A DNA stretch of 63,994 bases, the filler included. It is 12 parts of 12 records of this genome, joined end to end, with 100 filler letters (N's around TTAATTAATTAA, not from the genome) between each part and the next. Parts side by side here need not be neighbours in the genome. Positions count along the whole stretch, not along the records: positions 33,263 to 36,895 come from SRR7504441_17748; 11 more parts are not named here. One strand, written 5' to 3'. Below are positions 1-54,565 of the stretch, piece after piece. Each line of letters opens with the position of its first letter. Within the stretch, counting starts at the first letter, position 1. A model generated the notes under the pieces. That model was not told the DNA's origin, ran no database searches, and saw only the letters and a program-made list of their open reading frames with translations. Position numbers and translations under genes: made by a program.

Positions 1-1258
1 TTGTCTCATACTCCTGCACCGCCTGCTTCACTGCCTCGGCTGTCAATTCAGACTGTGGACCGGTATCTGTAGCGGCCCCGCCTGCCTGCTTCTCCGGAGC
101 AGCAGTGGCTGGCTTGCATCGTTCCAGCAAGGCCACATGCTCCTCGCGCACCCAGCTCAGCTCGAGCTCCATCGCTCTGCATTCGGCCAGCAGCCAGTCA
201 AACTCGGTACTCATCCGAGCCTCAACTCCGGCCCGAGCCTCCTCCCACCCGCCTGGGCCGCCCCACACTGGCTGGCCTTGCATGTCAGCCTCCAGCTGCT
301 GCAGCGCCGCGCGCTCGGCCTGCCAGTTCGTCTTTTCAGCTTGCAGCTCCTCCACTTCCTGCAGCAGCGCAGCCCTCTCGCTCCACAACTCTTCGAGGTC
401 TTGTTCCCGCTCCTCCTGCTTAATCAGCTGCTGCTCCTCCTGTGCAGGGCTTCGGGGCGACTTGCTCTCTGAGCAGCTGTCCAAGAACCGGGAGGTGGCC
501 AAAAGCTGCCGCCGGGCACTGATGAGCTCCTTGTCCTGGTCCTCCAGCGCCGCCACTGCCTGCCCGTACTTGCCCTCAAGCTCTACCACTTGCGCCCTCA
601 GCTTCTGAATCTCGGTCGCATCAGCCTGCCGCTCCACCTGCCACAGGCTGAATGCCTGTTCCTGGCCGGTAGGCAGCACCTCGCGCTGCCTCAGCTGCTC
701 GGTGAGCACAGCACACGATGCCTCCTGCTCCATCAGCCCTCGCTGCACGCTCTCATCTCCCGCAGTGCCGAAATCGTCAAGCTCTGCTCGGAAGCCTTCG
801 CATCCGGCCGCCATCCCGTCCAGCTCTTGGCTAATCGCGCGCTCCATGCTACTGGCCTGCTGCCCCAGACTAGCACACTGATCCTCCAATGCCCCGAGCC
901 CCTCTTCGCTAGCCGCAAGCTGCTCCGTCAGTCCAGCCCTCGCGCTATTCTCCGCGGCCCCAATCAGCGCAGCCCGCACCCCATCGGCCTCCTCCGCCAT
1001 TTGTTCCGCCTTGGCCCGCTGGGCTGCACTGACGGCCGCCAGCTCTTCGAGTGCAGCGGTGTGCCCCGCGAGGATTTCGCAACGGCTTAGCATCTGCCGG
1101 AGCGCCTGCGCAGTCTCCTCCAACCCCGCCGCCTTTCGCGTGCCTTCTGGCGTCTTGTCGTCCCTTGTGAGCGAGGCCTGCGCGTGGTGCAGCTCCTCCG
1201 TCAACCTTCGGCACTGCTCGAGCTGGGTTTGGACCCTCTGCCCCAGCTGGCCCGCCAT
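1..1258 (-). CDS. Coiled-coil hypothetical protein, 3'-truncated by the window edge
   Basis: An open minus-strand frame runs from ATG 1258 (MAGQLGQRVQTQLEQCRRLTEEL...) towards the window start. It is E/Q/A/L-rich with heptad character. It is absent from the ORF track because it has no stop. Small in-frame introns and a further upstream exon are possible. Confidence 0.65.
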   Translation of the reverse strand, partial: MAGQLGQRVQTQLEQCRRLTEELHHAQASLTRDDKTPEGTRKAAGLEETAQALRQMLSRCEILAGHTAALEELAAVSAAQRAKAEQMAEEADGVRAALIGAAENSARAGLTEQLAASEEGLGALEDQCASLGQQASSMERAISQELDGMAAGCEGFRAELDDFGTAGDESVQRGLMEQEASCAVLTEQLRQREVLPTGQEQAFSLWQVERQADATEIQKLRAQVVELEGKYGQAVAALEDQDKELISARRQLLATSRFLDSCSESKSPRSPAQEEQQLIKQEEREQDLEELWSERAALLQEVEELQAEKTNWQAERAALQQLEADMQGQPVWGGPGGWEEARAGVEARMSTEFDWLLAECRAMELELSWVREEHVALLERCKPATAAPEKQAGGAATDTGPQSELTAEAVKQAVQEYET

Positions 1259-2172
1259 GGCCTCGCACTAGGCCATCCGCCACGCGGTTCGACTCTCCGG
1301 AGCTGTCCGGCGACGGAGTGATACGGACTGCACCGTTGGTAGCTGCATGTGCTACGAGCTTGCAGAGGCGATTTTAATTTAATTATTAATAGTCCTAATT
1401 AATTAAGTATACGTACGTGTTTACCAAAGTACGACTACACTACGACTACACGGACTGCATAACTAAATCGTCCAGTTGAGTAACAATGTAGCTCACATGT
1501 ACACGTCCGCCATGCTCTTGGCGACCTTGGCGACTTTGGACTCATCATGATCATACGCAATCATGATGAATAACATTACAGCGCTAGACGACATTTCAGT
1601 CACTGAAGCATCGGATGGGTGTTGCTGAATATTCATCTTTCTGTTAACCGGCTCAAAGCTCGTCCCTTCGACCCCGTGGCTTTGGTGCCTCAGGTGCCAC
1701 GGTCCTTGCAGCCATGTAGCCAAGCTCGACAGCCCTCATTCCCTTGAACTGAAGCTTTATGTTTCCGCTTGGCCTTCCATGCCTTCCAAACTTGTGCACA
1801 ATGTTCGATTCAGCAACAAATAAGAAATCGCCAGAGGAAGCCATGCCCTTAGCGCTCATGCCACGTGAGACCACGTGAGCCACTCGGTCCCCTCCCACCG
1901 CTGCAACGGCAGACACCGCATTTTTGCTATGTTTGGCATTGCTGATTGTCAGACTTCAGTTCGCGAGCGCCGGCGCTATAACTCGCGCAGTCGGGCCACT
2001 ACGCGCGTACGTCGATGGTACTTACGTCGACGTCTGACGCAATTTAAAGTATGAGACTTTTGCCGAATAATGTAACATTACATATAATCGAGAAGGCAAT
2101 GACGTGATGCGAGAACGTCTTATTACAATCATGTAACTCCATTTGTACATGTACAATCAAGTAGTGCTCAAG

Positions 2173-3358
2173 CTAACCAACTAGCTTGGGCATCACACTG
2201 ATATTACACTCGACTCGAGCTCTCTTTCTCATCTTGCTCGACGTGGCTTGGTTAGCATCGACAGCCCACCTCAGCCCGAGCTCACAACCCACACGTAGCC
2301 GCTCCGGCTGTGAAAGGGATAGTCCACCGGCGTTCTGATAGAAGCCAGTCTGATCCTTTTGGAGCATGTAGCTCAATTCTAGAGTGTGGAATACGATTGG
2401 CGGTAGTCCCCAGTCTACGTTACGGTGAGCCTGCCAGACGCTCCTGTCGATCTTCCGGAGCTGTGACTGTTGACGCTTCTTACCCATCACTTTGGATGCC
2501 TTGAACAGCGTGCAGTGAGGCGTCCACCCCTTGCAGCTGAACCCTGCCTCGGCCAGCCCTTCTTGCTCAAACCTTCCTGGCCAATCAGTGCCAGCCGCTA
2601 GCCACAAGACCTGCTGTGCACCGCCGCCGCAAACTTGCCTAGCTGTTGCTTGTGTGAGTCTGGCACCACTGCCGCATACAGCGTGGCCTGACCGAAGCTG
2701 TCGAGCCCTCGCATGGTGCACTGGGCTGGCGCCATAGCAGAGAAGAAGCCCGCTACGAGCTCAGCACAGCTCGCCAGCACCTGCCGTCGGGTGAGCAACC
2801 GGCACCGGCCTGACTGGCCTGCTGGGCGCGCGCCAGCTGGTCGGGGCTGTGCAGACCCATGACGAACAGCGTGAGGTGCGCGCTCTCGACCGGCACTGCC
2901 ATCGGCCGCAGCCCGGGCGCCGCCGACAACAGCTCGGACTGCACCCTCCGAAGACCGGCCATCAGCCCGGGATGGTCCGCCAGCCGCAGGCTCACAAAGT
3001 AGTTTGGCCGAACCCGCTTGCCTGGGCTGCTCGCTGCCGGTAGCGGGGCTGGTAGCGGGGCTGGCGGTTCTGCCCAGCTGGCCAGCATGGCTGCACGCAC
3101 CACATCGGTCGCTGCAGATGATGCAGGCCCGCCGATGGTCAGGCCGGCGGCCTCACGGACCAGCAGAGCCTCGGCCGCCGCCCGAACGGCCGGGTCAGTG
3201 GCCTGAGCGGCCTTGCCCACCGCGGCGGCCGCTGCGAGCAGCAGCCGGGCGCGCAGCTGCTGGTCATTGCCCTCAGGGCTGCACCCAGCCCGCACAGCCG
3301 CGCGCTCCAGCTCGGCCCGGCCCCACGCCTCGACAGCCACGCCGGCGGGCGACCTCAT
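2173..3358 (-). CDS. AKAP7-like 2H phosphoesterase (2',5'-phosphodiesterase-like) with N-terminal SAP-like motif; 2 introns
   Basis: Motifs RPNYFVSLRL, HLTL and PHCTLFK (two HxT motifs). Two 38-nt introns, one GC-AG near 2781-2818 and one GT-AG near 2573-2610, join three ORF-track pieces in frame. Confidence 0.85.
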
Positions 3359-15542: not shown

Positions 15543-18500
15543 TCACCCGCCTTGAGAAGCTCGGAATTGACCTTCACAAAGGCCCGGTGCATCGACCAAA
15601 GTTACTTTCCAACCCGGTCTGTCCATGGACTCTTCGAAAGCTCGTTTTAATGCACTCTCTGTCCCCCCAGACTTGAAGGCTACTGTACACACACCATTAC
15701 TTTGGGCAGGCATATCAGATGAGAAGGCTTTGGGTCCAACATGCCATTTGATTCCTTTTCCAGTGCTCTGAACCTCCACAAGCGGCAGTTGTGGCGGTGG
15801 TGTGCTCAGTTCAGCCAGCAATTTTCCGGCAGATTCCAGCTCGAGTTTGAGCATGTCGACTCTTGTCTTGGTGCTTTTGATTCGCTGATTCGCGTTTGTC
15901 GCACCTTCTTGATCCTTAGCCCGCTGAGCACGCTCAAGAGCAATCTCCGCCTCTTTCAATTGTGCTGTTGAGACCTCCAAGTGTGCCTTTTTACTGTTGA
16001 AGTCGGTTTGCACTTTTGCTAATACTTCTGCAGCTGCATCTGTATCTGTACCCTCGCTGTTCTCATTGGCAGCTTGCTCTTCTGCTTTGGCGGCAATAGG
16101 AGGCAACGGCTCTGCAGGGTCGACAGCGACATCATCCGACTTTCCCTTGTCGGTTGCCTTGACAGTTTCTGCATCGCCAGGAAATATTGTCTTTGCAAGC
16201 CTGCGTTCTTGCTCCAGTTTCGCCTTTGCGGCCTTCTGAGCTTCATTCACAATCATCTCTGCATGAGACGCAGCACGTTCCTCTGCTGTGGGCCCACTAT
16301 CTGTTCCTTTGCCTCTGCTCAGGCTGAGAATGTTGAATGACCCATCGGTGCTACCCCAGTATTCATTTATTCCCAGTGATGGTGCCGTGACATCTGGCTT
16401 CTGGAGACATGCTTGATACCATTCTTGCCGAACCTGGCGGTACACTGCCTCTGCAGCTTGTGGTGGGGCCAAAGCATTCCGCTCCAATGCCGCTCGACTT
16501 TTTGCGATGGTGCTGCTGGTCTGTATCCACTTCATAAAACCAATCCAACACATAGCTTCTGGATCAGGGATGGCCTCAGCATCTCTCAGCCGCTGCGTGA
16601 ACGTGACAGCTGTTGCATTGTGCTCTGGAATCTGGCCTTGAACAAAGTTGCTCTTGAGGTGTCTAACAGACAGAGGCTCGAGCCCAACCATCTGCATACT
16701 GCCGTGGTTACAGCGGCACACCAGCCAGTCTGCGAGCGTGTGGTTGACTACGTTGTTGGATAATAGATAGCGCGCGCGAAAGACTTGGCCCCGCGTACAC
16801 GCTAGACTTAGTCTACCCTCATGGCATTCGGCTTCAGCATATGGCTCACAAGTTGATGAACAACTGCTCGTAATATTTGGATGGAGGTATCCGTTCTCGA
16901 AACCGTTCACCTGCCCATCCACAGAATACAATGCCCCGTCTGCCCGCATATCCCAGGCTGCAATGCTTCCAGGTCCCTCTGGTGTGCCATCTGGTTGCCA
17001 AGCGGCAACCACGCGCTGGAATACAGCTCGCTTCATCCGATGAGATTCAGTCAACTTGGGCATGAGTTGCTCCTTGTTACTCCATCCCCATCCTTCCATT
17101 ACTCGGTGCCGCAATGCAAATAGTGACTTGTTCTGATAGGAGGTCTCCTGCAATTCCACCATGCCTTGACTTGCCTTCACCTCTGCCTCTCCTATATGGA
17201 AAGCTGTGATGGCATTAAGACGTTCAGTATTACGAGCAACAAGGGCTTGTTTGCATTTCTTTCGATATTCAAATTGCGTTTCTGTCCGGAGCTCATTTGA
17301 TCTCATTAAAGAGTCTTGTTCTGAAAACATGAATGCCCGCGCTTTCCACTCCAGCTTTTGTGCGATTGTATAGGATATTACTGGTACCTTTGCACGCTGG
17401 TCTGCAACAGTTGCCTTCCTGAGGCGCATTTTGTGTTCCTCAACCATGCTCACCGCCCATTTCTTTTGCATGTCGCGATATTTGATCATCAGCTCCAAGT
17501 AGGGTGCTGGTTTTGCTTCAAATGGAGTTGACGGCGTGTTGCAGCCTGCTTCCACCATTGCAAGAACCCTTTCTTGCACCAGTGTCAGCTGTTCCGCCTG
17601 AGCTTGCATTGTCGCAAGCGAATCTGCTAAGGCTGCCTGTTTCTCAGGGAGAGCGTTCACAGCACTGATGTGTGCTCTTACAACTCTTTTGAACTTCTTT
17701 TGCTGCTCGCCTGCATAGGGCTTGAAGAGCTTTAATCGCTCCTCCCATTCGATCCTTGTTGCTTCTGCTCTGGCCAGATGCCTGGATTTGCTCTTGGCGT
17801 ATTCTACAGCATTCGACAGCATTTCCGTCACATTGCGGGTATCAGCCTGCTTGGCCAGCATGTCTTGATATTTCATTTTGTGCTCCTTGACTGCTCGATT
17901 ATACATTTCATCTGCAGTTTCAGCATGCCTGGTTGCATTTCTCTGATATTCGTCACAAGCAAGCGCAGTAGCTTTTGAGCGTTCAGTTGCATTAATCGCA
18001 AACATAACCATGGGCTTCAGACGGTTCAAGTACCATTGTAATCGAGCACCCTTGCTCTGCGTCTTATTAGCAGCAGCAATAGCTATCTGAAGGTTCCGTT
18101 GAGCTCCAGCTGCTTGTTGAGTTGAATAATACAGAGTGTTGTTCGCATTCTCTAGAGCCTTCTCGGCATCGACTTCCTTGTTTGCACTATCTTGCTTGTT
18201 TTCCTCATCTGCCTTTTTCTGGGCATCCCCCTTCAGCACACCGTCTGCCTGCATTACATCAGCTTCCTGAGCAATTTCCTTTTCCTCCTGCGTTTGCTTT
18301 TTGGCGTCAACCAGATTCTGCTCTGCATCCTCAAGTTCAACTCGCTCCTTGGCCAAAGCTTTGACTTGCTTCTCGAGATCCTCCTGTTCGAGCCTGATCT
18401 CTTCTTCTGACTCTTGTCTGGCCACATCAATGACACTTTGCAAATGCTCGCCTGATTGGTGCAATCGGGTCACCTTAGTCTCAAGATAATAGGTCTTTTT

Positions 18501-20664
18501 CCATATAGCCCGCCGCAATGCCTCTGACTTGATCACTGCTGCTTTTGCGAGCAGCTTAGCAGCTTCAGCCGAAAGCATGTCACGACGCACTTGAGCCTCA
18601 GCAGCTTCTGCCAACTTCTGGATTTGACGACGCTGCTTGAGCTCAGCACCCCACAGCAGTGACACATTCTCGGCCTGAAGGTACTCCACATGCGATTGGT
18701 ACTTGTCTACTTCGGTCTCATGATACCACTTCTCGGCATGTTCGAGCAATTTCAAAGCTTGGAGGTGAACGAGCGAAGTCCCCTTCAGTGTGTGGTTCAG
18801 CTGGCTGGCGGCGAGCTCAGCGTTCTCAAGTTCCAGCCGACTTGTCATGTATTTCTGTGTCGCTTTGAAGACAGTCTCCTGCTGTGCATCCTCCTCGTTG
18901 ATGCCTTTCTCCGCTTCTTCCTGTTTGGCCTTGAATTCTTCGGTCTTTTGTTTCATGCCCTCCTCAATAGCCTCCTTCTGAGCAGCCGCTTCATTCATTG
19001 CTGTTTGCTCGGCAGCAGCTTTCTCTGCAGCCAGCTTACCACCTGCAAGAGCTTCTTTCGCAACATTCACTGCACTTGCCGGGTCATCCTGGGCTGCAGC
19101 AACAGCTTCAGCAGACCGCTTTGCGTCTGCAGCAGCGGCCTCTCCCTTCCTGGCAGCGATCTCCAATTGCTGCTTTTGCGTTTCCTTGTAGTCTTCTTCC
19201 CTCTTCACAGCCTTCATCTCTTCAAATTTGCGAGCATCAGCAGCTGCAACCTCCTCGCTCGATGTATCATCAGCGGATTCACTAGCCTCTTTTGCCACTA
19301 TCTCAGCTTGTTCCAGTTCTGATGCTTGCCGCTCCTTTTGGGACCGGGTCGTTTGGTGCTTCATCTTGGCCACCTTGAGCTTATCGGTCACGATCATGTA
19401 CCTGTGCTTGGCCTGACTCTTCTCCATGTGAGCTGTCCATGTTGCACTTCTCAGGAAGATCGATGATCCGTCATAGCTTTCCTGCGCGTTCTGCAAGTCG
19501 ACCAGTGACTGCTTGTACTTGCGCACGGTCACTTGCTGCGCCTCCTTCAGCTTGCCAATTTGCTGCTCACTCTCCTTGAGCGACTCCTGGGCTGACTTAA
19601 AGTCACGCTTCTGCGCCTTGGCCTCCTGCCGTCTCTTCTCTACGAATTCAGACTCCATCGGGCAGTTTTTCTTTGTGAGCATTGTGGCCTCGTAGTGCAG
19701 CGAGTGCGCGTGCTCGACTTTGGACCAGGCCAGTGGCACCCACTGATCGGTCTTCGCAGCGGTTTCGATCCCTTGACTAGTCTTTTGCAACACGATTTCC
19801 ATCTGCTCCTGGGCCTGCTGGATGAGCGACGCCTGAATCGTGAAGCTCTGGTCGCTGCTCCCGGTGCCGCCCTCGGACACAGCAATCGCACGCAGTCTGA
19901 TCTCTTGACGGTGCATCCCAGCCATTTTGATTCCAAGCTTCGGGTCATACCGCAGCGATCTCTTAGTCGGGGCAGACCCGTCTGTCGTGTAGTAGATGTC
20001 CCGCGCTGCGGCCACCGAGACTGCTCTTAGCTTTGCTTTGGCAGTGCCGAGCGCGTCTATGCTGTTCTGCACCTGTTTCTCGGCCGCGACCACGGCCTGT
20101 TGTTCGAGCTTTAGTTTGTCCCCGTCTGCTTTCGCGTTCTCGCCCGTCCGATCGGCCTTGAGCATCCACTTTAGCTGCTGGACTCTCCGCTCGCTGTCGA
20201 GCAGCTTGCGCTTGGCCGCCTCGCGCTCGGCCGACTTGTTGTGCACCGCCTGCTGGGCCGCCTCCACGTCGTCCGCCTGCACAACGGGCTCAACCGGACC
20301 GGCCCGGCCGCCAGGCGCTCACCGTGGGCACCATGTACACCCGCGCCCCCTGCTGGATCTTGCCCCCATCCGGCCGGAAGCTCAACGCATCCTCAGGCCG
20401 AGCCCCGGCGCCGTCGCCGAGCACGCGAGCCGGTCGCGCACGGCGGAAGATGGACTCGGCCACCTGGGCGTACGCGTCGAAGCTTGGCTGCGGCCCGAGC
20501 GCGTCAAGTTGGGCGAACCCCTCCTGGGTCCTGCTATCGACCGGCTCCTTGAGCACCCCGACCAGCGGCGCGGCGTCCGCCGCACCGAGCTCGGTCAGCA
20601 CCTCGCCGGAGCTGGCGAGCGCCGCCATCAGCCCGGCCCCCAGCCAGACCAACCCCCATCTCAT
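15543..20664 (-). CDS. Very large secreted coiled-coil protein (about 1690 aa) with a CHB_HEX_C/Fn3-associated-like domain
   Basis: Signal peptide MRWGLVWLGAGLMAALASS. One GT-AG intron (20277-20322) joins it to the 1579-aa ORF. It has the motif IYYTTDGSAPT...IRLRAIAV, long heptad regions and a Cys-rich segment near the C-terminus. Confidence 0.85.
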
Positions 20665-33262: not shown

Positions 33263-36200
33263 ACTCCGAATTCCTTCTCACCCTCGCCGTCCTGCCACAA
33301 CCAGCCGCATCTAACGACATTCAACGGCATTCAACTGGCACCTCAGGTTCGATCGTGACTGCCACCACAACCGACACTCGAGGGAGCAGTTTCCCGTCCA
33401 ACAACGACCTGAAGCAACCTACAAATGCCGTTAAATGCCGTTAAATACAGCCGAGGCCTCACCTATATCGTCGCTCTTGAAGTTCGCCGCCTCCTTAATC
33501 ACAACAGTCAGCCCTGGCAAAGGAAAGTCGCTCCGGAGTCGCGTGCTCGCGAGCTCGGTTGGAGATATATACGGCCGGAATAATAGCTTGAACTTGCTGT
33601 CTGAACCGGCTTCATTCGCTTCATGCGGCTGCTCATTCCACTTAATGCTCTGCCGGCGCGGAGTGCTCTGCGCCGTCCGGATTAGGGACATAAGTTAACA
33701 TCTGTAGCTGAACACCTTCCTTTTATATTATTAGGGCGTGACCTGCATCTCTGTGGCCAGGCTGGTGAGCCGCCGCTGCCGCCGCTGCGGACGCTCGGTG
33801 TTTGTGTCACCGTGGCACTGGCACATTGTCCTGGGCACAGCTGTTAAGCTAGCCCATGCCCTAATCGGGACAGCGTTAAGCTATTCAGATTCCTAATTAG
33901 GAAGGCGGCGTTAAGCACCGGAGTTTGTGGAGGCACATCCGCTTGCTCAGCCAGACCGATTCCCTCAAGAACGCCGTGTCCAGCAGCCACCTGCCGCCAA
34001 TCAACGGCATTTAACGGCATCTAACTGCATCTAACGGCATTCACCAGCGCTTGCTGTCCTCGACCAGCGCTTGATAAAAGTGGAGCGCGCCTTGGTCCAT
34101 CAAGGAGACAACGTTCGGGTCGGCTTGCTGCAGATACTCCCACGCCCGATCTCGGGGCGAGAGGGCCAGCAGGGCGGCCTCGCGCTCCTGTCACTAGCTT
34201 AACACCTTCCTAATCGGGAAAGCGCTTAACACCTCGGTCGGCATGGCATCCAGCACCGACTCACGCTGCGCCAGGGTGGTTAGATGCCGTTAGATGCCGT
34301 TAAATGCCTGCGCTAACGGCATCTGGTGGAGCTCAGCTGCAACGTCCAGAACTCGCTTGTTGGCCAGCGTCGCTGATACCGAATCAAAGTTAGCGGATTA
34401 AGATTAAAATTGATATCAATTGCCTGCAATCTCCTCGGAGCTCCTGCAACTACCGTCGAGCGACTCGAGCGACTCCTTGGCATTTAGGACCTAACCCGGG
34501 GGTTATTTCCTTTTAAGGCAAGTGTGACGGGCCTGCGCGAGAGCATGGCTGCTGTCCTGTCGGTCGGCCTGGAGCAGCTGGCCGAGCCTGAACCGCATCT
34601 TCATGGTGGCCACGCCGCAGCCCTGTGACAGTTGCCCGGTCAGGTGTTAAGCTAGCCATTGCCTAATCGGGAAAGAGGTGTTAACCTGGGTCATCTCGCC
34701 GTAAAGGCAGAGAGAATCGGAATTGTTCCGCATAAACATCTGGAGCAGCGCCCACGAGCCCGGATACTCCTGTCACTAGCTTAACACCTTGCCTAATTGG
34801 GAGATTGTCTATGTTAACAGTCTATGTTAACCTGCATTGAGAGGATCTGGTGCAGGTAGAAGCCGTTGACCAGCTTGCGAGCCTTCAACTGCCCAGCCAG
34901 CTCACAAGCAGCACACAACACAGATCACGCCACACTGTGCACACAGCAGCAGCGCACTAGGCACACTGTCTAGCGACAGGCTACAGCACGTAACAGTACA
35001 GCGCAGCGCTATTTCAAGGAGAGCGACCGTCTGGCGGCCAGTGAAGGGCAGGAAGTGGCCCATGTGGATGAACTCCAACAGCTCCTTGGTAGGCACCTGA
35101 ATGCCGTTAAATGCCGTTAAATGCCGTTAATTGCGCCTCGCAGCTTGCGAGTGCGCGGAGGTTGTTGGCGAAGGCCACGAACACGAGATCGTCGTAAAGA
35201 CTCCAGTGCCTGCCAATCCGCTCAGCCAGCACTGCTGCTGGTGCTACTAGTAGTGCGTATCATACTGAGCTATTGTAGCATAGCAGTATAGAGTATAAAG
35301 CGTAGCTCTATTTGCCTGAAGAAGTCCTCATTGATTAGTTCCTTTAGCGGCTGCAGTTTAGCGTAAATAGCCACAAACATCAAGAGCACCAGCACCAGCG
35401 ACACCGTCAGGTACCTACACACACCCGCACCAGTCAGCTCCCATGGCTGACTGGGGACACATTATTCTTACTATTATCCGCTATGTAATTAGTATGTATT
35501 AGTATGTATTAGTGTGTTACCCCAACAGCTTGCAAAGAGCTCCTAATAGAGAGCTGCCGTAAAGCTGCTCCTTGAGCATTTTCATCTGCACCCAACGGCA
35601 TTCAACGGCATTCAACGGCATTTCACGCACCTGAATCGAAAAGTTGCGCGTCTCGAATGATGTGATGATCTGAAGCAAGTTGCGGTCGGCCACCTGCCAG
35701 GAACAGTTAGGCGTCGGTGTGAAAGGAGCACGGTCGCAGTTACTAGGCAGAATGATGACTGCGGCAACTAGCTGTGGCTACAGCCATGCTGCTATAGCCT
35801 CTATCACTAGATAAATACAGTACTAGTAAAGCATCCGAGTATAGCCACCTGCTGCAAGTAGAATGCCATGTTCTTCGCACTGACCACCATGTGCGCATAA
35901 GCCTGCCCCACCACTCACCCCAACCACCGCCGCCTCCAGTGACAGCCCCATATACCAGTACTACTAAACCATACTCCGGTAGTCGTATACACTAGCTGAG
36001 TAAGCAACCTGTCGGCAATCCCGCTCCTTGCACCGCTCCTCAGCCCCAACCTCCATCCCCTCCAGCTCATCCACCGGACCTGCCCCACCGCCCATTATTC
36101 CCTTATTAGGCAGGTGTGACGTCCATTATTTCCTAATTAGGCAAGCACCCCGCCCGCGGTGTATCCAGTCGCTCAACCCATCCGGCTCGGACTCCAGCCA

Positions 36201-36758
36201 CCTCCAACGACATTCAACGGCATTTAACGGCATTCCAACGGCACCAGAACAGCCGGCCAGCGCAGTAGCACGACCCACCCACCGCGCCGAGCACCCACAG
36301 CGCTTCCAGCGCCGCTGCGACGCACATGAGCACCTGCGGCCGGTAACGGCAATCCGTTGGACGGCGCACGTTGTGGAAGCCGTCGAAGCGGTCCGGCTCC
36401 CACCAGTACTTGTGGACGTTGGCGCCGACGAACACCATGTTCAGCATGCAACGGCAGGCCTGTCGTCCGTTAGATGCCGTTGGAGCCGGCCGGGGCGCCA
36501 GGGCGGAGGTGACGAGCCGGTGCAAACCGGTTTGGTTTCGGTCAAAGTTGACAAACTTGAAGATCCGGCGCTCCTGCCAACGGCATTTCAACGGCATTTC
36601 AACGGCATTTCACAACGGCCACCTGGTCAGACGGGTAGTAGGGGAAGGTGCTGATGTCCGTCAGGAGCGGTCGCCCACTGGCGCTCGCTTCTCCGAAGCT
36701 GCCCCCAACAGCATTTAACGGCATGACAACGGCAGGGCCACCGCTCGCGCAGCCGCAT
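33263..36758 (-). CDS. Multi-pass membrane protein (at least 634 aa, 25 exons, 3'-truncated), possibly entering a C2 domain at the contig end
   Basis: Manual removal of 24 GT/GC-AG introns (1592 nt in total) leaves 1904 nt of uninterrupted frame: MRLRERFGEASASGRPLL...VLMCVAAALEALWVLGAVGG...GYLTVSLVLVLLMFVAIYAKLQ...DLVFVAFANNL...GLTVVIKEAANFKSDDIG. The start may lie further upstream (ATG 36872 plus a 30-nt intron at 36840-36869). Confidence 0.85.
33292..36741. repeat. Intronic repeat family A: tandem 10-11-nt (A)ATGCCGTT(A/G)A units in 11 introns
   Basis: Introns 33292-33341, 33419-33462, 33991-34044, 34266-34307, 35097-35136 (three perfect ATGCCGTTAA), 35586-35630, 36202-36244, 36334-36369, 36460-36498, 36574-36622 and 36699-36741. 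Confidence 0.9.
33668..36148. repeat. Intronic repeat family B: CCTAATTAGG-type palindromic core with GTGTTAAGCTAG or GTCACAC arms in 7 introns
   Basis: Introns 33668-33742, 33831-33918, 34188-34232, 34491-34532, 34623-34685, 34770-34831 and 36080-36148. Cores lie at 33860, 33892, 34209, 34662, 34792, 36101 and 36132. Confidence 0.88.
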
Positions 36759-36895
36759 CGCTGCTCCGGTCGCCCGACGGCAACACACCCGGCGACCAGC
36801 CGCGGACCTGCCCCAGGAGCCGCGCCGATGTGCGGAATTCTGCAGATCCGTTAAAATCAACGGACAAACCATGGCCGAAGGAGCGAATGGAGAAC

Positions 36896-52489: not shown

Positions 52490-54466
52490 TTACACTTCCT
52501 CGGTGTTGCTCAATTCTTCGAGACCCCTGAGAAGTTTTCGAGCGTGCTTTATTGCATTTGAACGAGGGCATGCACAGCTCCTGCACTCCTCCAGCTCTGC
52601 TACTTGGCGATACCATTCTTTCGCCTGCGCGAGATCCTTCTTTACACCACCTGTACCATTCGCGTAGCAACTGCCGAGCTTCATTTGGGCGTCTAGATCG
52701 CCCAGGTCTGCGGCCTTTCGGTAAAGTTCCAGCGCCTTTGTCAAATCCTGTTCCATGCCATCGCCACTCTCATACCACTCGGCAAGAATCAGAAGCGCAT
52801 CTTCATCCTCTTGGTCGACAGCCTTCCGCAGCCACGCCACCGCCTGCCCCTTGTCCTGCTTCACGCCATCGCCATTTGAATAGCACAAACCTAGGCTTCT
52901 CTGAGCACTGGGCGCTCCGTTTTCTGCAGCCTTGCGGATCCAGCTGACGCCCTTGGCCATGTCCTTCTCAACCCCCCTGCCACTCATGTAGCAACAGCCC
53001 ATCACACACTGTGCGTCCACATTGCCCAGGTTGGCTGCCTTGCGCAGCCACTGGACTCCTAGCGCTGAATCCTGCGCGACGCCATCGCCGTTCAGGTAGC
53101 ATTGGCCCAGGCAGTACTGTGCGTCTACATCTCCAAGCGTTGCTGCCTTACGGAACCACTCGGCAGCCTGCGCCATATCTGCATCCACGCCCTCGCCATT
53201 TAGATAACAGCAGCCTAGGCTGTACTGCGCGCTTGCAAACCCCTGGATGGCTGCCTTCCGGTACCACTTGACTGCCTCCCTCATGTCTCGCTCCACGCCA
53301 CTGCCCTCCTCATAACTCGTGCCGAGGTCCCACTGGGCGCGCGCGAAATTCTGGGCCGCAGATTTGCGGTACCACTCGATTGCCTGAACCATGTCCTTCT
53401 CCACGCCGTCGCCATCCTCGTAGCATTCGCCCAGGTAGGCCTGCGCACGGGCATTGCCTGCTTGCTCTGCCGATTTGCGGTACAACTCGGCTGCCGTGGC
53501 TACGTCCTTTGCCACCCCCACGCTGTTCTGATGGCAGGTGCCAAGAATCAGCTCAGCCACTCCCCGGCTGTCAGGCATCGCCTCCCTTAGCATCTGCACG
53601 GCCTGCTCTTCGTTGCATGCTCGGCCGCCCAGTCCCTTGAGCACGCAGTACGCTTCAGCCACAGCGCTCCCTGCATCTGCGGCTGCCCCTATGAGAATCT
53701 CGCCTCTCGCCAAGTCTTTTGCCAACTTGTCACCAAAGTGGTAGAACTCGCGGCCCTCGTCAAACAACGAATCGGCGTCCAAACGGCGGTGCTTTCCCGG
53801 CTGGTCCTCCTCGCCCAATTTTTCTTGCAGCGATGTTGCCTTCTCCTGATATATGGCTCTCACACGCGCAAACTCGGCCGGCAGCGCCTCCTTCCCCTGA
53901 AGGTCCTTCCCCAAAGCCGTCAGTTCCTCCAGCGCCTGCTTGCTCCTGCTCTCGGCCTGCGTGGCCGCCACACTCAACGCCCGCATCGTCCGGAGCTGCC
54001 CCTGGAGCCTCTGGGTCACGGCCGCGGCTGTCTCCTCCAGGGCCTGGAGCGCCGCCCCCACCTCCGGCGACCAGACCATCTGCACGCCCTCTAGGCAGCT
54101 CTTTAGTCGGCGCAGCCTGTCTCGAGGCATTACAATCGAGCGCTCAGACACCCAATCGGCTAGCTTGCCGAGTTTTTGAACCGCCTCTCCCCCCGTGGAC
54201 ACCCAGAAGACCCCGGCGAGCAGCCCAGCCAGCCGGCTGTCCTGGTCCTCGCGCCAGCGGCTGATCATGGCGCTGAGCGTGTGGTTGGGGACGAGCTTGG
54301 TGTGCGCGAGCGGCTGGTTGGTGCTCGGCGACCTGTTGCTTGACCGGAGCCAGCGCTGGATCGCGTCGTGCTCGTAGGTGTACCCGTCGGCCGCGAAGAC
54401 CGGTGTGTGCATCACATCGTGGGTGATGGGGCACGTCATCTCCGGCACAATGTTCTCCAGCTCCAT
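52490..54466 (-). CDS. U-box domain + Sel1-like repeat protein, intronless
   Basis: CPITHDVMHTPVFAADGYTYEHDAIQRWL...SPSTNQPL...LVPNHTL, followed by about 11 36-aa repeats of the form AQxxLGxCYxxGxGVxKDxxxAxxWxRKAA. Confidence 0.93.
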   Translation of the reverse strand: MELENIVPEMTCPITHDVMHTPVFAADGYTYEHDAIQRWLRSSNRSPSTNQPLAHTKLVPNHTLSAMISRWREDQDSRLAGLLAGVFWVSTGGEAVQKLGKLADWVSERSIVMPRDRLRRLKSCLEGVQMVWSPEVGAALQALEETAAAVTQRLQGQLRTMRALSVAATQAESRSKQALEELTALGKDLQGKEALPAEFARVRAIYQEKATSLQEKLGEEDQPGKHRRLDADSLFDEGREFYHFGDKLAKDLARGEILIGAAADAGSAVAEAYCVLKGLGGRACNEEQAVQMLREAMPDSRGVAELILGTCHQNSVGVAKDVATAAELYRKSAEQAGNARAQAYLGECYEDGDGVEKDMVQAIEWYRKSAAQNFARAQWDLGTSYEEGSGVERDMREAVKWYRKAAIQGFASAQYSLGCCYLNGEGVDADMAQAAEWFRKAATLGDVDAQYCLGQCYLNGDGVAQDSALGVQWLRKAANLGNVDAQCVMGCCYMSGRGVEKDMAKGVSWIRKAAENGAPSAQRSLGLCYSNGDGVKQDKGQAVAWLRKAVDQEDEDALLILAEWYESGDGMEQDLTKALELYRKAADLGDLDAQMKLGSCYANGTGGVKKDLAQAKEWYRQVAELEECRSCACPRSNAIKHARKLLRGLEELSNTEEV

Positions 54467-54565
54467 GGCCGGGTTGCCAAGCCTGGTAGCTGTATGATGT
54501 CCGTTACATGTATCTACCGGTAGTCGAACCAGCGCCCAGCGCAGAGCTGAAGCGCGGACGATGTG

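Follow-up and report, generated by a model that had tools for sequence, protein, structure and literature searches.

How spliceosomal introns newly arise has long been an open question; the route documented best is the introner, in most cases a miniature DNA transposon. Among transposons that duplicate their target, hAT elements make 8-bp duplications on insertion. The fungal introner-like elements of van der Burgt (2012) and Collemare (2015) are reportedly families of near-identical short introns without terminal inverted repeats (TIRs) or target-site duplications (TSDs); each is said to be a full-length copy for which a stable structure is predicted, and not a tandem array. In Daphnia, introns flanked by direct repeats have reportedly been gained (Li et al. 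2009), and another study is said to describe gain by tandem duplication. In passages from a survey of 548 introner families, median lengths run from 30 to 654 nt, 0–50% of donors are GC, TSDs measure 3–9 bp and many families have neither TSDs nor TIRs (PMC9860276). Passages on the Micromonas introner classes give a class of 67 nt (the IE-C average) and one with 53% GC donors (PMC3879977). The gene described here lies on contig 6 (positions 33263–36895) of a 63,994-nt window, that is, the whole stretch of DNA analysed, in which 12 contigs are joined by N44-TTAATTAATTAA-N44 spacers. Most of its predicted introns hold nothing beyond a short tandem array or a small set of modules that can be inverted, and splicing appears to act on both orientations.

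The longest stop-to-stop open reading frame (ORF) on the coding (minus) strand of this contig is only 131 aa, in keeping with a first-pass annotation of the window that had found almost no long ORFs here and had proposed a hidden multi-intron gene. In a three-frame view of the reverse complement, coding stretches rich in G+C at the third codon position (GC3) alternate with stop-rich repeat patches that start with GT or GC and end with AG. An open path through such sequence is weak proof by itself: a naive search gave other open paths, for example one with 18 introns. Open paths being this cheap, the intron boundaries were set by hand and then checked by script. Automatic models, based on minimal intron number or length or on a self-trained codon score, were partly wrong; the codon model placed most introns correctly, but not all.

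The resulting gene starts with an ATG at 36758 and has 22 exons and 21 predicted introns, 18 of them GT-AG and 3 GC-AG, together with two further introns that are optional (Table 1). After splicing, the coding sequence measures 1916 nt, equal to 638 codons; it contains no stop and is still open where the contig ends. The proposed hidden gene in one frame was thus recovered over the same 3496-nt span, although the figures given for it, 24 introns, 1592 intron nt and 634 codons, were not reproduced exactly: we obtained 21 introns (23 with the optional pair), 1580 nt and 638 codons. Predicted intron lengths range from 40 to 156 nt (median 62) and are below 75 nt in 13/21, and the coding sequence is interrupted on average every 90 bases. 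Introns have a mean GC content of 0.50, versus 0.48–0.76 for exons, and the in-frame GC3 of exons is 0.62–1.00. Twelve introns are in phase 0, three in phase 1 and six in phase 2. The GC donors of introns 9, 10 and 15 are forced, in that an in-frame GT donor is absent there. The GC content of the contig as a whole is 0.56, within the range of 0.49–0.65 for the other contigs.

No orthologue, homologue or Pfam family was found for the gene using single exons as queries. Seven minus-strand ORFs of the contig had no Pfam match above noise, and phmmer, run exhaustively with exon 3 (109 aa), returned three weak multi-stretch matches (best E = 1e-9) that were judged to be low-complexity. The same exon gave no usable match in the ESM Atlas. 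Finally, a word-indexed search with exon 20 (68 aa), restricted to longer proteins, found none.

The gene model was evaluated against a related strain, using DNA contigs from one aquatic metagenome, the only public run found to contain part of the target contig. Eleven records fall on the target contig and cover 19/30 bins; the coverage of the gene is approximately 1.3 kb. Their identity to the target contig is 90–97%, the strain being put at 95–97%, which indicates a related strain rather than the same sequence. There are 49 differences, and the counts that follow rest on the 40 of these that are listed: 21 lie in predicted introns and 19 in exons. In the modelled frame, 18 of the 19 exon differences listed leave the amino acid unchanged; third codon positions account for 14 of the 19 (binomial p = 0.0004). 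Three indels distinguish the strains: in the related strain, intron 12 is 5 nt longer, the tandem array in intron 8 is 15 nt shorter, and 1 nt is missing upstream of the ATG. Both of those inside the covered gene body fall in introns. The GC3 of the exons, their synonymous differences and the confinement of indels to introns together show that the gene is real. It is a protein-coding gene of an aquatic microbial eukaryote and is under purifying selection. The comparison supports the predicted frame in exons 8, 9, 10, 12 and 20 and rules out an assembly artefact for the covered arrays.

The same comparison allowed divergence to be set side by side. In the covered parts of 33423–35606, there are 21 listed differences in 626 intron bases, whereas 715 exon bases hold 18 synonymous changes. 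By this count introns look less diverged than synonymous sites, a comparison in which contig-break bias is possible and nine differences are unlisted.

Sixteen of the 21 introns belong to two repeat families, nine to family A and seven to family B. The count for family A rises to 11 if the two optional mini-introns are included, which matches the 11 A and 7 B introns of the first-pass annotation. Family A introns consist of little beyond 2–4 tandem 10/11-nt units, AAATGCCGTT(G), in either orientation: sense in introns 1, 2, 3, 7, 17 and 21 (n = 6) and antisense in introns 10, 15 and 20 (n = 3). The sense introns are bracketed by G/GTG(C)C... and ...GTTGG(N)CAG/, where the slash marks the splice site, and all six can be aligned end to end, starting at the GGT donor. 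In introns 3 and 21, the donor GTGCC(A)GTTG is itself a variant of the unit. In the antisense introns, the unit's own GCAT gives the GC donor, and the donors of introns 10 and 15 lie inside or beside the unit.

Family B comprises introns 4, 12, 13, 14, 16, 18 and 19, which have modules of approximately 30–45 nt in common. The modules are CCCGATTAGG and AAGGTGTTAAGCTAGTGACAG, some of them inverted. Of the CCCGATTAGG-type and GTTAAGCTAG-type modules, the latter is inverted in intron 13, relative to introns 12 and 16, and in intron 18. Introns 12 and 16 have 24 identical nt across the acceptor. Introns 5, 6, 8, 9 and 11 are outside both families. The claim that the introns fall into common repeat families, whose units vary in number and occur either way round, is thereby borne out. 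The further claim, that they are mosaics and not full-length copies, was only half right: the six sense A introns align at full length, which makes them homologous introns rather than mosaics alone, and introns 12 and 16 have the same 3' end.

The similarity between introns is far above chance. A 10-mer on either strand is common to 38/210 intron pairs, whereas 200 shuffles gave 1.1 such pairs on average and never more than 5. Fifteen of the 21 introns have a 10-mer partner, whereas among exons only 5/231 pairs do. The 8-mer core of the A unit, AACGGCAT, or its complement occurs 22 times in the 3.6-kb target contig and once in the other 60 kb (11 contigs). Twenty of the 22 cores are within predicted introns; the remaining two are in an optional mini-intron and in the final bases of exon 15 (its last 15 nt). 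Within the window, the A sequence is thus confined to this contig and its introns nearly to the last copy. More generally, 11.5% of the target contig lies in 10-mers seen at least three times, versus 0–3.1% of the other contigs, and within the window Tandem Repeats Finder detected arrays of the 10/11-nt A unit in the target contig only.

Units are identical within the arrays of introns 2 (period 11), 7 and 10 (period 10), and the period or the variable bases differ between arrays. In the related strain, intron 10 differs at 5/40 positions. Based on the identity within arrays, the difference between them, the strain indel in intron 8 and the changes in intron 10, we conclude that the arrays turn over fast by slippage, one of the processes suggested in the first-pass annotation, and that this slippage is ongoing.

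The arrays of introns 17 (34006–34035) and 15 (34279–34308) are 97% complementary over 30 nt and are 243 nt apart. They could pair in the pre-mRNA, looping out exons 16 and 17.

Several features recall the introners described in passages of PMC3879977 and PMC9860276 for Micromonas (IE-A to IE-D), Aureococcus and many aquatic protists. The introns are similar to each other from the splice site inward, as is seen here in the intron pairs with a common 10-mer, in family A from the donor on and in introns 12 and 16 at the acceptor. The likeness extends to short introns, the use of GC donors in some families, the many families without TSDs or TIRs and the occurrence in aquatic microbial eukaryotes (PMC9860276, in the passages mentioned). 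In contrast to introners, the body of the intron here is a tandem 10/11-nt array of variable copy number and either orientation, or a set of invertible modules, and the copies are known from one gene only. The word 'tandem' is absent from the main text of the introner survey (PMC9860276), and no description of introns built of tandem arrays was found in the main texts searched. Used as a text string, the A unit gave matches of which those listed looked like incidental strings, such as primers. Our best reading is that these are introner-like repeat introns with a tandem-array build. The fungal introner-like elements, as they are reported, are alike in being short similar introns without TIRs or TSDs, and differ in not being tandem arrays. 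Emiliania introns reportedly contain 10–11-nt repeats and many GC donors, but the literature searched offered nothing to bear this out, and the comparison was dropped.

For the origin of these introns, we favour introner-like insertion followed by slippage, with a probability of approximately 0.45. It is favoured because the arrays reach and supply the splice sites, because they occur in both orientations and because the A unit is found in introns of unrelated genes elsewhere, in some cases with flank duplications that look fresh (see below). Indeed, the two orientations are easily explained by insertion and are hard to explain by conversion alone. Specifically, short array-bearing DNA would have inserted repeatedly, in either orientation, at AG/G-type sites; the insert would have supplied part or all of the splice signals; and replication slippage would afterwards have altered the unit number and homogenised each array. 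The insertional origin and its machinery are both postulated, and none of the machinery lies within the window. If the arrays did create the introns, a sequence no more complex than a 10-nt unit repeated three times would suffice to found one, and slippage-prone repeats or templated break repair would feed intron gain.

A series of observations weighs against insertion. No TIRs were found in any of the 21 introns (best score ≤7). In-register boundary duplications stand out in introns 6 (9 nt) and 9 (6 nt) alone; summed over the introns, they amount to 77 versus 69.8 in permutations (P = 0.047), which is barely above chance, and introns with a boundary duplication of at least 6 nt number 3 versus 1.7 expected (P = 0.23). 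All copies of the two families seen (9–11 A, 7 B) are within one gene. No record of the related strain skips a covered intron, so that no presence/absence difference was found in approximately 1.3 kb of one strain. The searches with single exons found no orthologue, so the intron positions may be old. The exact junctions, including the three GC donors, are all predictions, and the metagenome loci that carry the A unit may belong to unrelated organisms, with only the repeat unit in common with the window. From the window by itself, it does not follow that the introns were made by the repeats. What can be said most safely is that the gene is real and that its introns fall into repeat families of tandem-array or modular build. 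Of the intron-generating system proposed in the first-pass annotation, the repeat families therefore stand, whereas TIRs, clear TSDs and presence/absence differences are lacking; the orthologues and the polymorphism that were to reveal new intron positions did not turn up in the single-exon searches or in the contigs of the one related strain.

A strong rival to insertion, if in our judgement the less likely of the two, is that the introns are old: slippage-prone minisatellites would have grown inside them, ectopic conversion between adjacent introns would have spread the unit along the gene, and the repeats would have created no intron. Slippage and array turnover are seen directly, the window introns have neither TSDs nor TIRs, and every covered intron is also present in the related strain. 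Moreover, intron 20 retains a unique donor region, GTGAGGCC, ahead of its array, and all copies are within 3.5 kb, as local conversion predicts. Against old introns stand the two orientations of family A (6 sense, 3 antisense), which are not a product of conversion, and the several introns that have no non-repeat sequence and in which the donor is part of the unit. In other contigs, moreover, introns of unrelated genes contain the A unit, and some of those arrays have duplicated flanks. Had old introns simply been colonised by the repeats, the locus would be a curiosity of minisatellite turnover in very short introns.

The occurrence of the A unit elsewhere was investigated by scanning metagenome contigs for three A cores at 10–11-nt spacing, which gave 75 loci. 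Most of these are single arrays with other spacer bases or are long satellites. Fourteen short marine contigs, chosen by eye, each have several arrays of AACGGCATTT(T) and variants (L001, L007, L008, L015, L021, L026, L031, L035, L041, L048, L053, L060, L064 and L068), and similar units are also present in L002, L014, L046, L047 and L055, of which L014 and L055 were taken further. The marine loci have nothing in common with the window except the repeat unit. In three of them, the arrays sit in introns of conserved genes. In L041, the domain ABC_tran is split over exons (profile positions 2–51 and 84–133), and an array at 448–500 lies in a candidate intron at 320–521. L015 encodes a metallo-beta-lactamase-fold protein (Lactamase_B), and L008 an ion-transport protein (Ion_trans). 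Together with the locus in the window, the marine contigs with ABC-transporter, glyoxalase-like and ion-channel genes are a concrete sequence family for testing intron origin.

Three of the satellites among the 75 loci (L029, L030 and L054) consist of an 11-nt unit, GCCATGCCGTT, over up to approximately 800 bp. This unit has the 8-nt core in common with family A and is otherwise different. One of the three satellites adjoins a coding region.

Some of the marine arrays are flanked by duplications. Direct repeats in the flanks score at least 10 in 6/36 arrays versus 38/1176 mismatched controls, three arrays near contig ends having been dropped. Two of the six are internal repeats. The other four are true flank duplications of 15–35 nt, in L035 (15 nt), L064 (22–25 nt) and twice in L031 (22–35 nt). 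In L064, the donor GT forms the beginning of the duplicated segment, and an AG forms the end of the insert. A second kind of insert, an element of approximately 48 nt around CCATATATGG, lies in coding sequence of marine contigs, such as the ABC transporter gene (Table 1). In its five complete copies, the flank duplications measure 8–20 nt; the 3' end (...CCGAAG) is the same throughout, whereas the 5' end varies, and the donor GT derives from the duplicated target. Finally, L001 has a telomere-type repeat, (TTAGGG)4, at 1313–1381 between the two copies of an exact 18-nt direct duplication, CCTGGGACGGGGAAAGGC, as if a block of repeats had been inserted into a staggered break. These loci resemble intron gain with flanking direct repeats, in that a duplicated exon segment in L064, L035 and L031 brackets new sequence and gives the GT. 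They differ in that the insert is a recurrent repeat unit and not unique filler, and the arrangement is not seen in the introns of the window.

The marine loci raise the possibility, which we consider improbable, of a marine or aquatic protist lineage with 'array introners', in which AACGGCATTT[T] units, their relatives and even telomere-type repeats would be copied into staggered breaks. The process would be retroposition-like and templated, or driven by a repair polymerase, and would leave variable duplications of 13–35 nt; the gene in the window would be an old, heavily hit target. The inserts would work as introns either way round, because the unit brings its own donor (GT or GC) and acceptor (CAG). 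If so, introns would be made by another mechanism than that of the cut-and-paste transposon introners known to date.

One of the 75 loci points to a different source. L055 (1–3477), fetched by the A pattern alone, contains an uninterrupted 687-aa hAT-type transposase ORF (786–2849, minus strand) with a hAT dimerisation domain (E = 1.8e-18). Positions 1–260 hold dense A-like arrays of AATGCCGTTAA and CCCGATAA units (CCGTTAA/CCGATAA). At the other end are eight tandem copies of AAGCTGTTAAGCTA, which contains the B core GTTAAGCTA. This core is present five times in the target contig and eight times in L055, and is absent from the rest of the window and from the other 74 loci. The modules of both families could then be subterminal transposase-binding arrays of a hAT-type transposon, and the introns its remnants or miniature derivatives. 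The transposase of the maize element Ac binds subterminal AAACGG repeats, according to the relevant passages of PMC3260210, and the A unit contains AACGG. As in Ac/Ds, short AACGG-containing motifs are repeated at approximately 10-nt spacing, and in L055 the arrays stand around a hAT gene.

The probability of a hAT source is nevertheless low, on a par with that of the marine lineage above. The B match between L055 and the target contig is only 9–13 nt (longest 13 nt), with a pairwise E-value of 0.16. Ac/Ds elements, which are not introns, come with 11-bp TIRs and 8-bp TSDs; the window introns have neither feature, and a fixed-length (8-bp, hAT-like) TSD was not found at any of them. A tblastn search found no hAT-like ORF in the window, and the flank duplications of the related loci are variable, at 13–35 nt, unlike those of hAT. 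L055 itself is cut by the contig inside both arrays, and its own termini are not visible. Its link to the repeats of the window is a lead, not a result. The annotation had proposed a search for a longer autonomous element or non-coding RNA that carries the modules: Rfam gave 0 matches in the window, and L055, with its short B match, was the one candidate of this kind.

Slightly less probable still is that units were copied into breaks from a template, by target-primed reverse transcription of a short repeat RNA or by polymerase-driven templated repair. Copying of this kind would leave arrays that differ in their number of units and lie either way round, with long duplications whose length varies. 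The flank duplications of L035, L064 and L031, which are in other contigs only, the 48-nt element with its constant 3' end and the (TTAGGG)4 block of L001 are all consistent with it. So are the window families with constant 3' ends and variable 5' parts, as in intron 12 versus intron 16 and in the A introns ending in GTTGG..CAG. However, the window introns do not have the flank-duplication pattern, and the retroposition pattern as a whole (variable flank duplications, a constant 3' end and a truncated 5' end) was not found in them. Rfam provided no template RNA in the window, and no reverse transcriptase was found among the few ORFs compared with Pfam. Very few loci were sampled, and they have only the repeat unit in common with the window. 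Of the templated addition at breaks suggested in the first-pass annotation, nothing was found in the window, and the long variable flank duplications in contigs of other organisms are what speaks for it, indirectly.

An ORF with an endonuclease/exonuclease/phosphatase domain in the neighbouring contig (30598–31617) was considered as a remnant of a long interspersed nuclear element. It was set aside, as there is no reverse transcriptase ORF nearby.

Very improbable, finally, are BOC1 introns, the compartment-specific short introns of the low-GC part of the big outlier chromosome in Mamiellales green algae: passages of PMC3491373 and PMC3879977 describe genes split by many 40–65-bp introns in an otherwise intron-poor genome, with a GC drop across the splice site, which resembles the many very short introns here versus ORFs of up to 1591 aa in other contigs and the lower GC content of introns than exons, but BOC1 introns are defined in PMC3879977 as short (<75 nt), AT-rich (<43% GC) singletons without mutual similarity, whereas only 2/21 introns here are below 43% GC, most share sequence, and a CobW-like ORF in the window has as its best match an unnamed transcriptome protein of 45% identity, weak evidence against a sequenced Mamiellales relative. 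The BOC1 identity was rejected on both the GC content (mean 50%) and the singleton criterion, even though 13/21 introns are shorter than 75 nt.

The long ORFs of the other contigs include an uninterrupted one of 1591 aa with chitobiase/Fn3-associated domains (15543–20318, minus strand) and an uninterrupted one with a U-box and eight Sel1 repeats (52490–54565, minus strand). The rest of the sample therefore looks intron-poor relative to the target gene.

Table 1. Predicted features of the gene on contig 6 and of the related marine contigs. Positions are those of the window unless a marine contig is named; A and B are the repeat families, and the slash in a motif marks the splice site.
Feature	Position	Strand	Length (nt)	Splice sites	Phase	Remarks
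Protein-coding gene	33263–36758	-	3496			22 exons/21 introns, 638 codons, 3' end open at contig edge
A-like half-units upstream of ATG	36847–36864					Palindromic (CCGTT..AACGG); 1-nt deletion at 36851 in related strain
Intron 1	36699–36741	-	43	GT-AG	2	A sense, degenerate units
Intron 2	36574–36622	-	49	GT-AG	0	A sense, three identical 11-nt units; alternative in-frame donor 6 nt downstream
Optional mini-intron in exon 3	36460–36486	-	27	GC-AG		In-frame, antisense A unit; G/C at third position in only 3/9 codons; holds one of the two A cores outside firm introns
Optional mini-intron in exon 3	36334–36369	-	36	GT-AG		In-frame, inverted A half-units
Intron 3	36202–36244	-	43	GT-AG	2	A sense, donor GTGCCGTTG unit-like; region 73% identical to that of intron 21 over 60 nt
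Intron 4	36080–36148	-	69	GT-AG	1	B, CCTAATTAGG modules
Intron 5	35903–36008	-	106	GT-AG	0	No 9-mer common to any other intron
Intron 6	35694–35848	-	155	GT-AG	0	In-register boundary duplication GCAG/GTGGC, the sole clear one
Intron 7	35586–35630	-	45	GT-AG	0	A sense, three identical 10-nt units
Intron 8	35415–35520	-	106	GT-AG	2	Own 10-nt tandem unit TATGTATTAG (plus strand); array 15 nt shorter in related strain
Intron 9	35210–35315	-	106	GC-AG	2	In-register duplication CAG/GCA
Intron 10	35097–35136	-	40	GC-AG	0	A antisense, three identical units AACGGCATTT
Intron 11	34889–35027	-	139	GT-AG	0	Neither A nor B
Intron 12	34770–34831	-	62	GT-AG	0	B; +5 nt near donor in related strain; final 21 nt and 3 exon nt same as intron 16
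Intron 13	34623–34685	-	63	GT-AG	0	B, GTTAAGCTAG module inverted versus introns 12 and 16
Intron 14	34373–34528	-	156	GT-AG	1	B-like 5' part; could be two introns with a micro-exon between
Intron 15	34266–34307	-	42	GC-AG	0	A antisense, GC donor inside unit (GCATTT)
Intron 16	34188–34232	-	45	GT-AG	0	B
Intron 17	33991–34044	-	54	GT-AG	2	A sense, 4 units
Intron 18	33831–33918	-	88	GT-AG	2	B; holds AGCTGTTAAGCTA, the tandem unit at one L055 end
Intron 19	33668–33742	-	75	GT-AG	0	B, degenerate
Intron 20	33419–33462	-	44	GT-AG	1	A antisense, array behind unique GTGAGGCC donor region
Intron 21	33292–33341	-	50	GT-AG	0	A sense
Element around CCATATATGG	L041:554–640, L041:1006–1085, L008:1–90, L053:1153–1240, L021:~60–170		~48

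The marine contigs have another recurrent intron-filling repeat. Repeats of the GGGGTT/AACCCC type, interleaved with CACTGTAGCGCACTGTTAACCCC, lie in introns or spacers of L015 (760–800), L041 (1–125), L048 (1–50 and 800–1050) and L007 (1130–1190).

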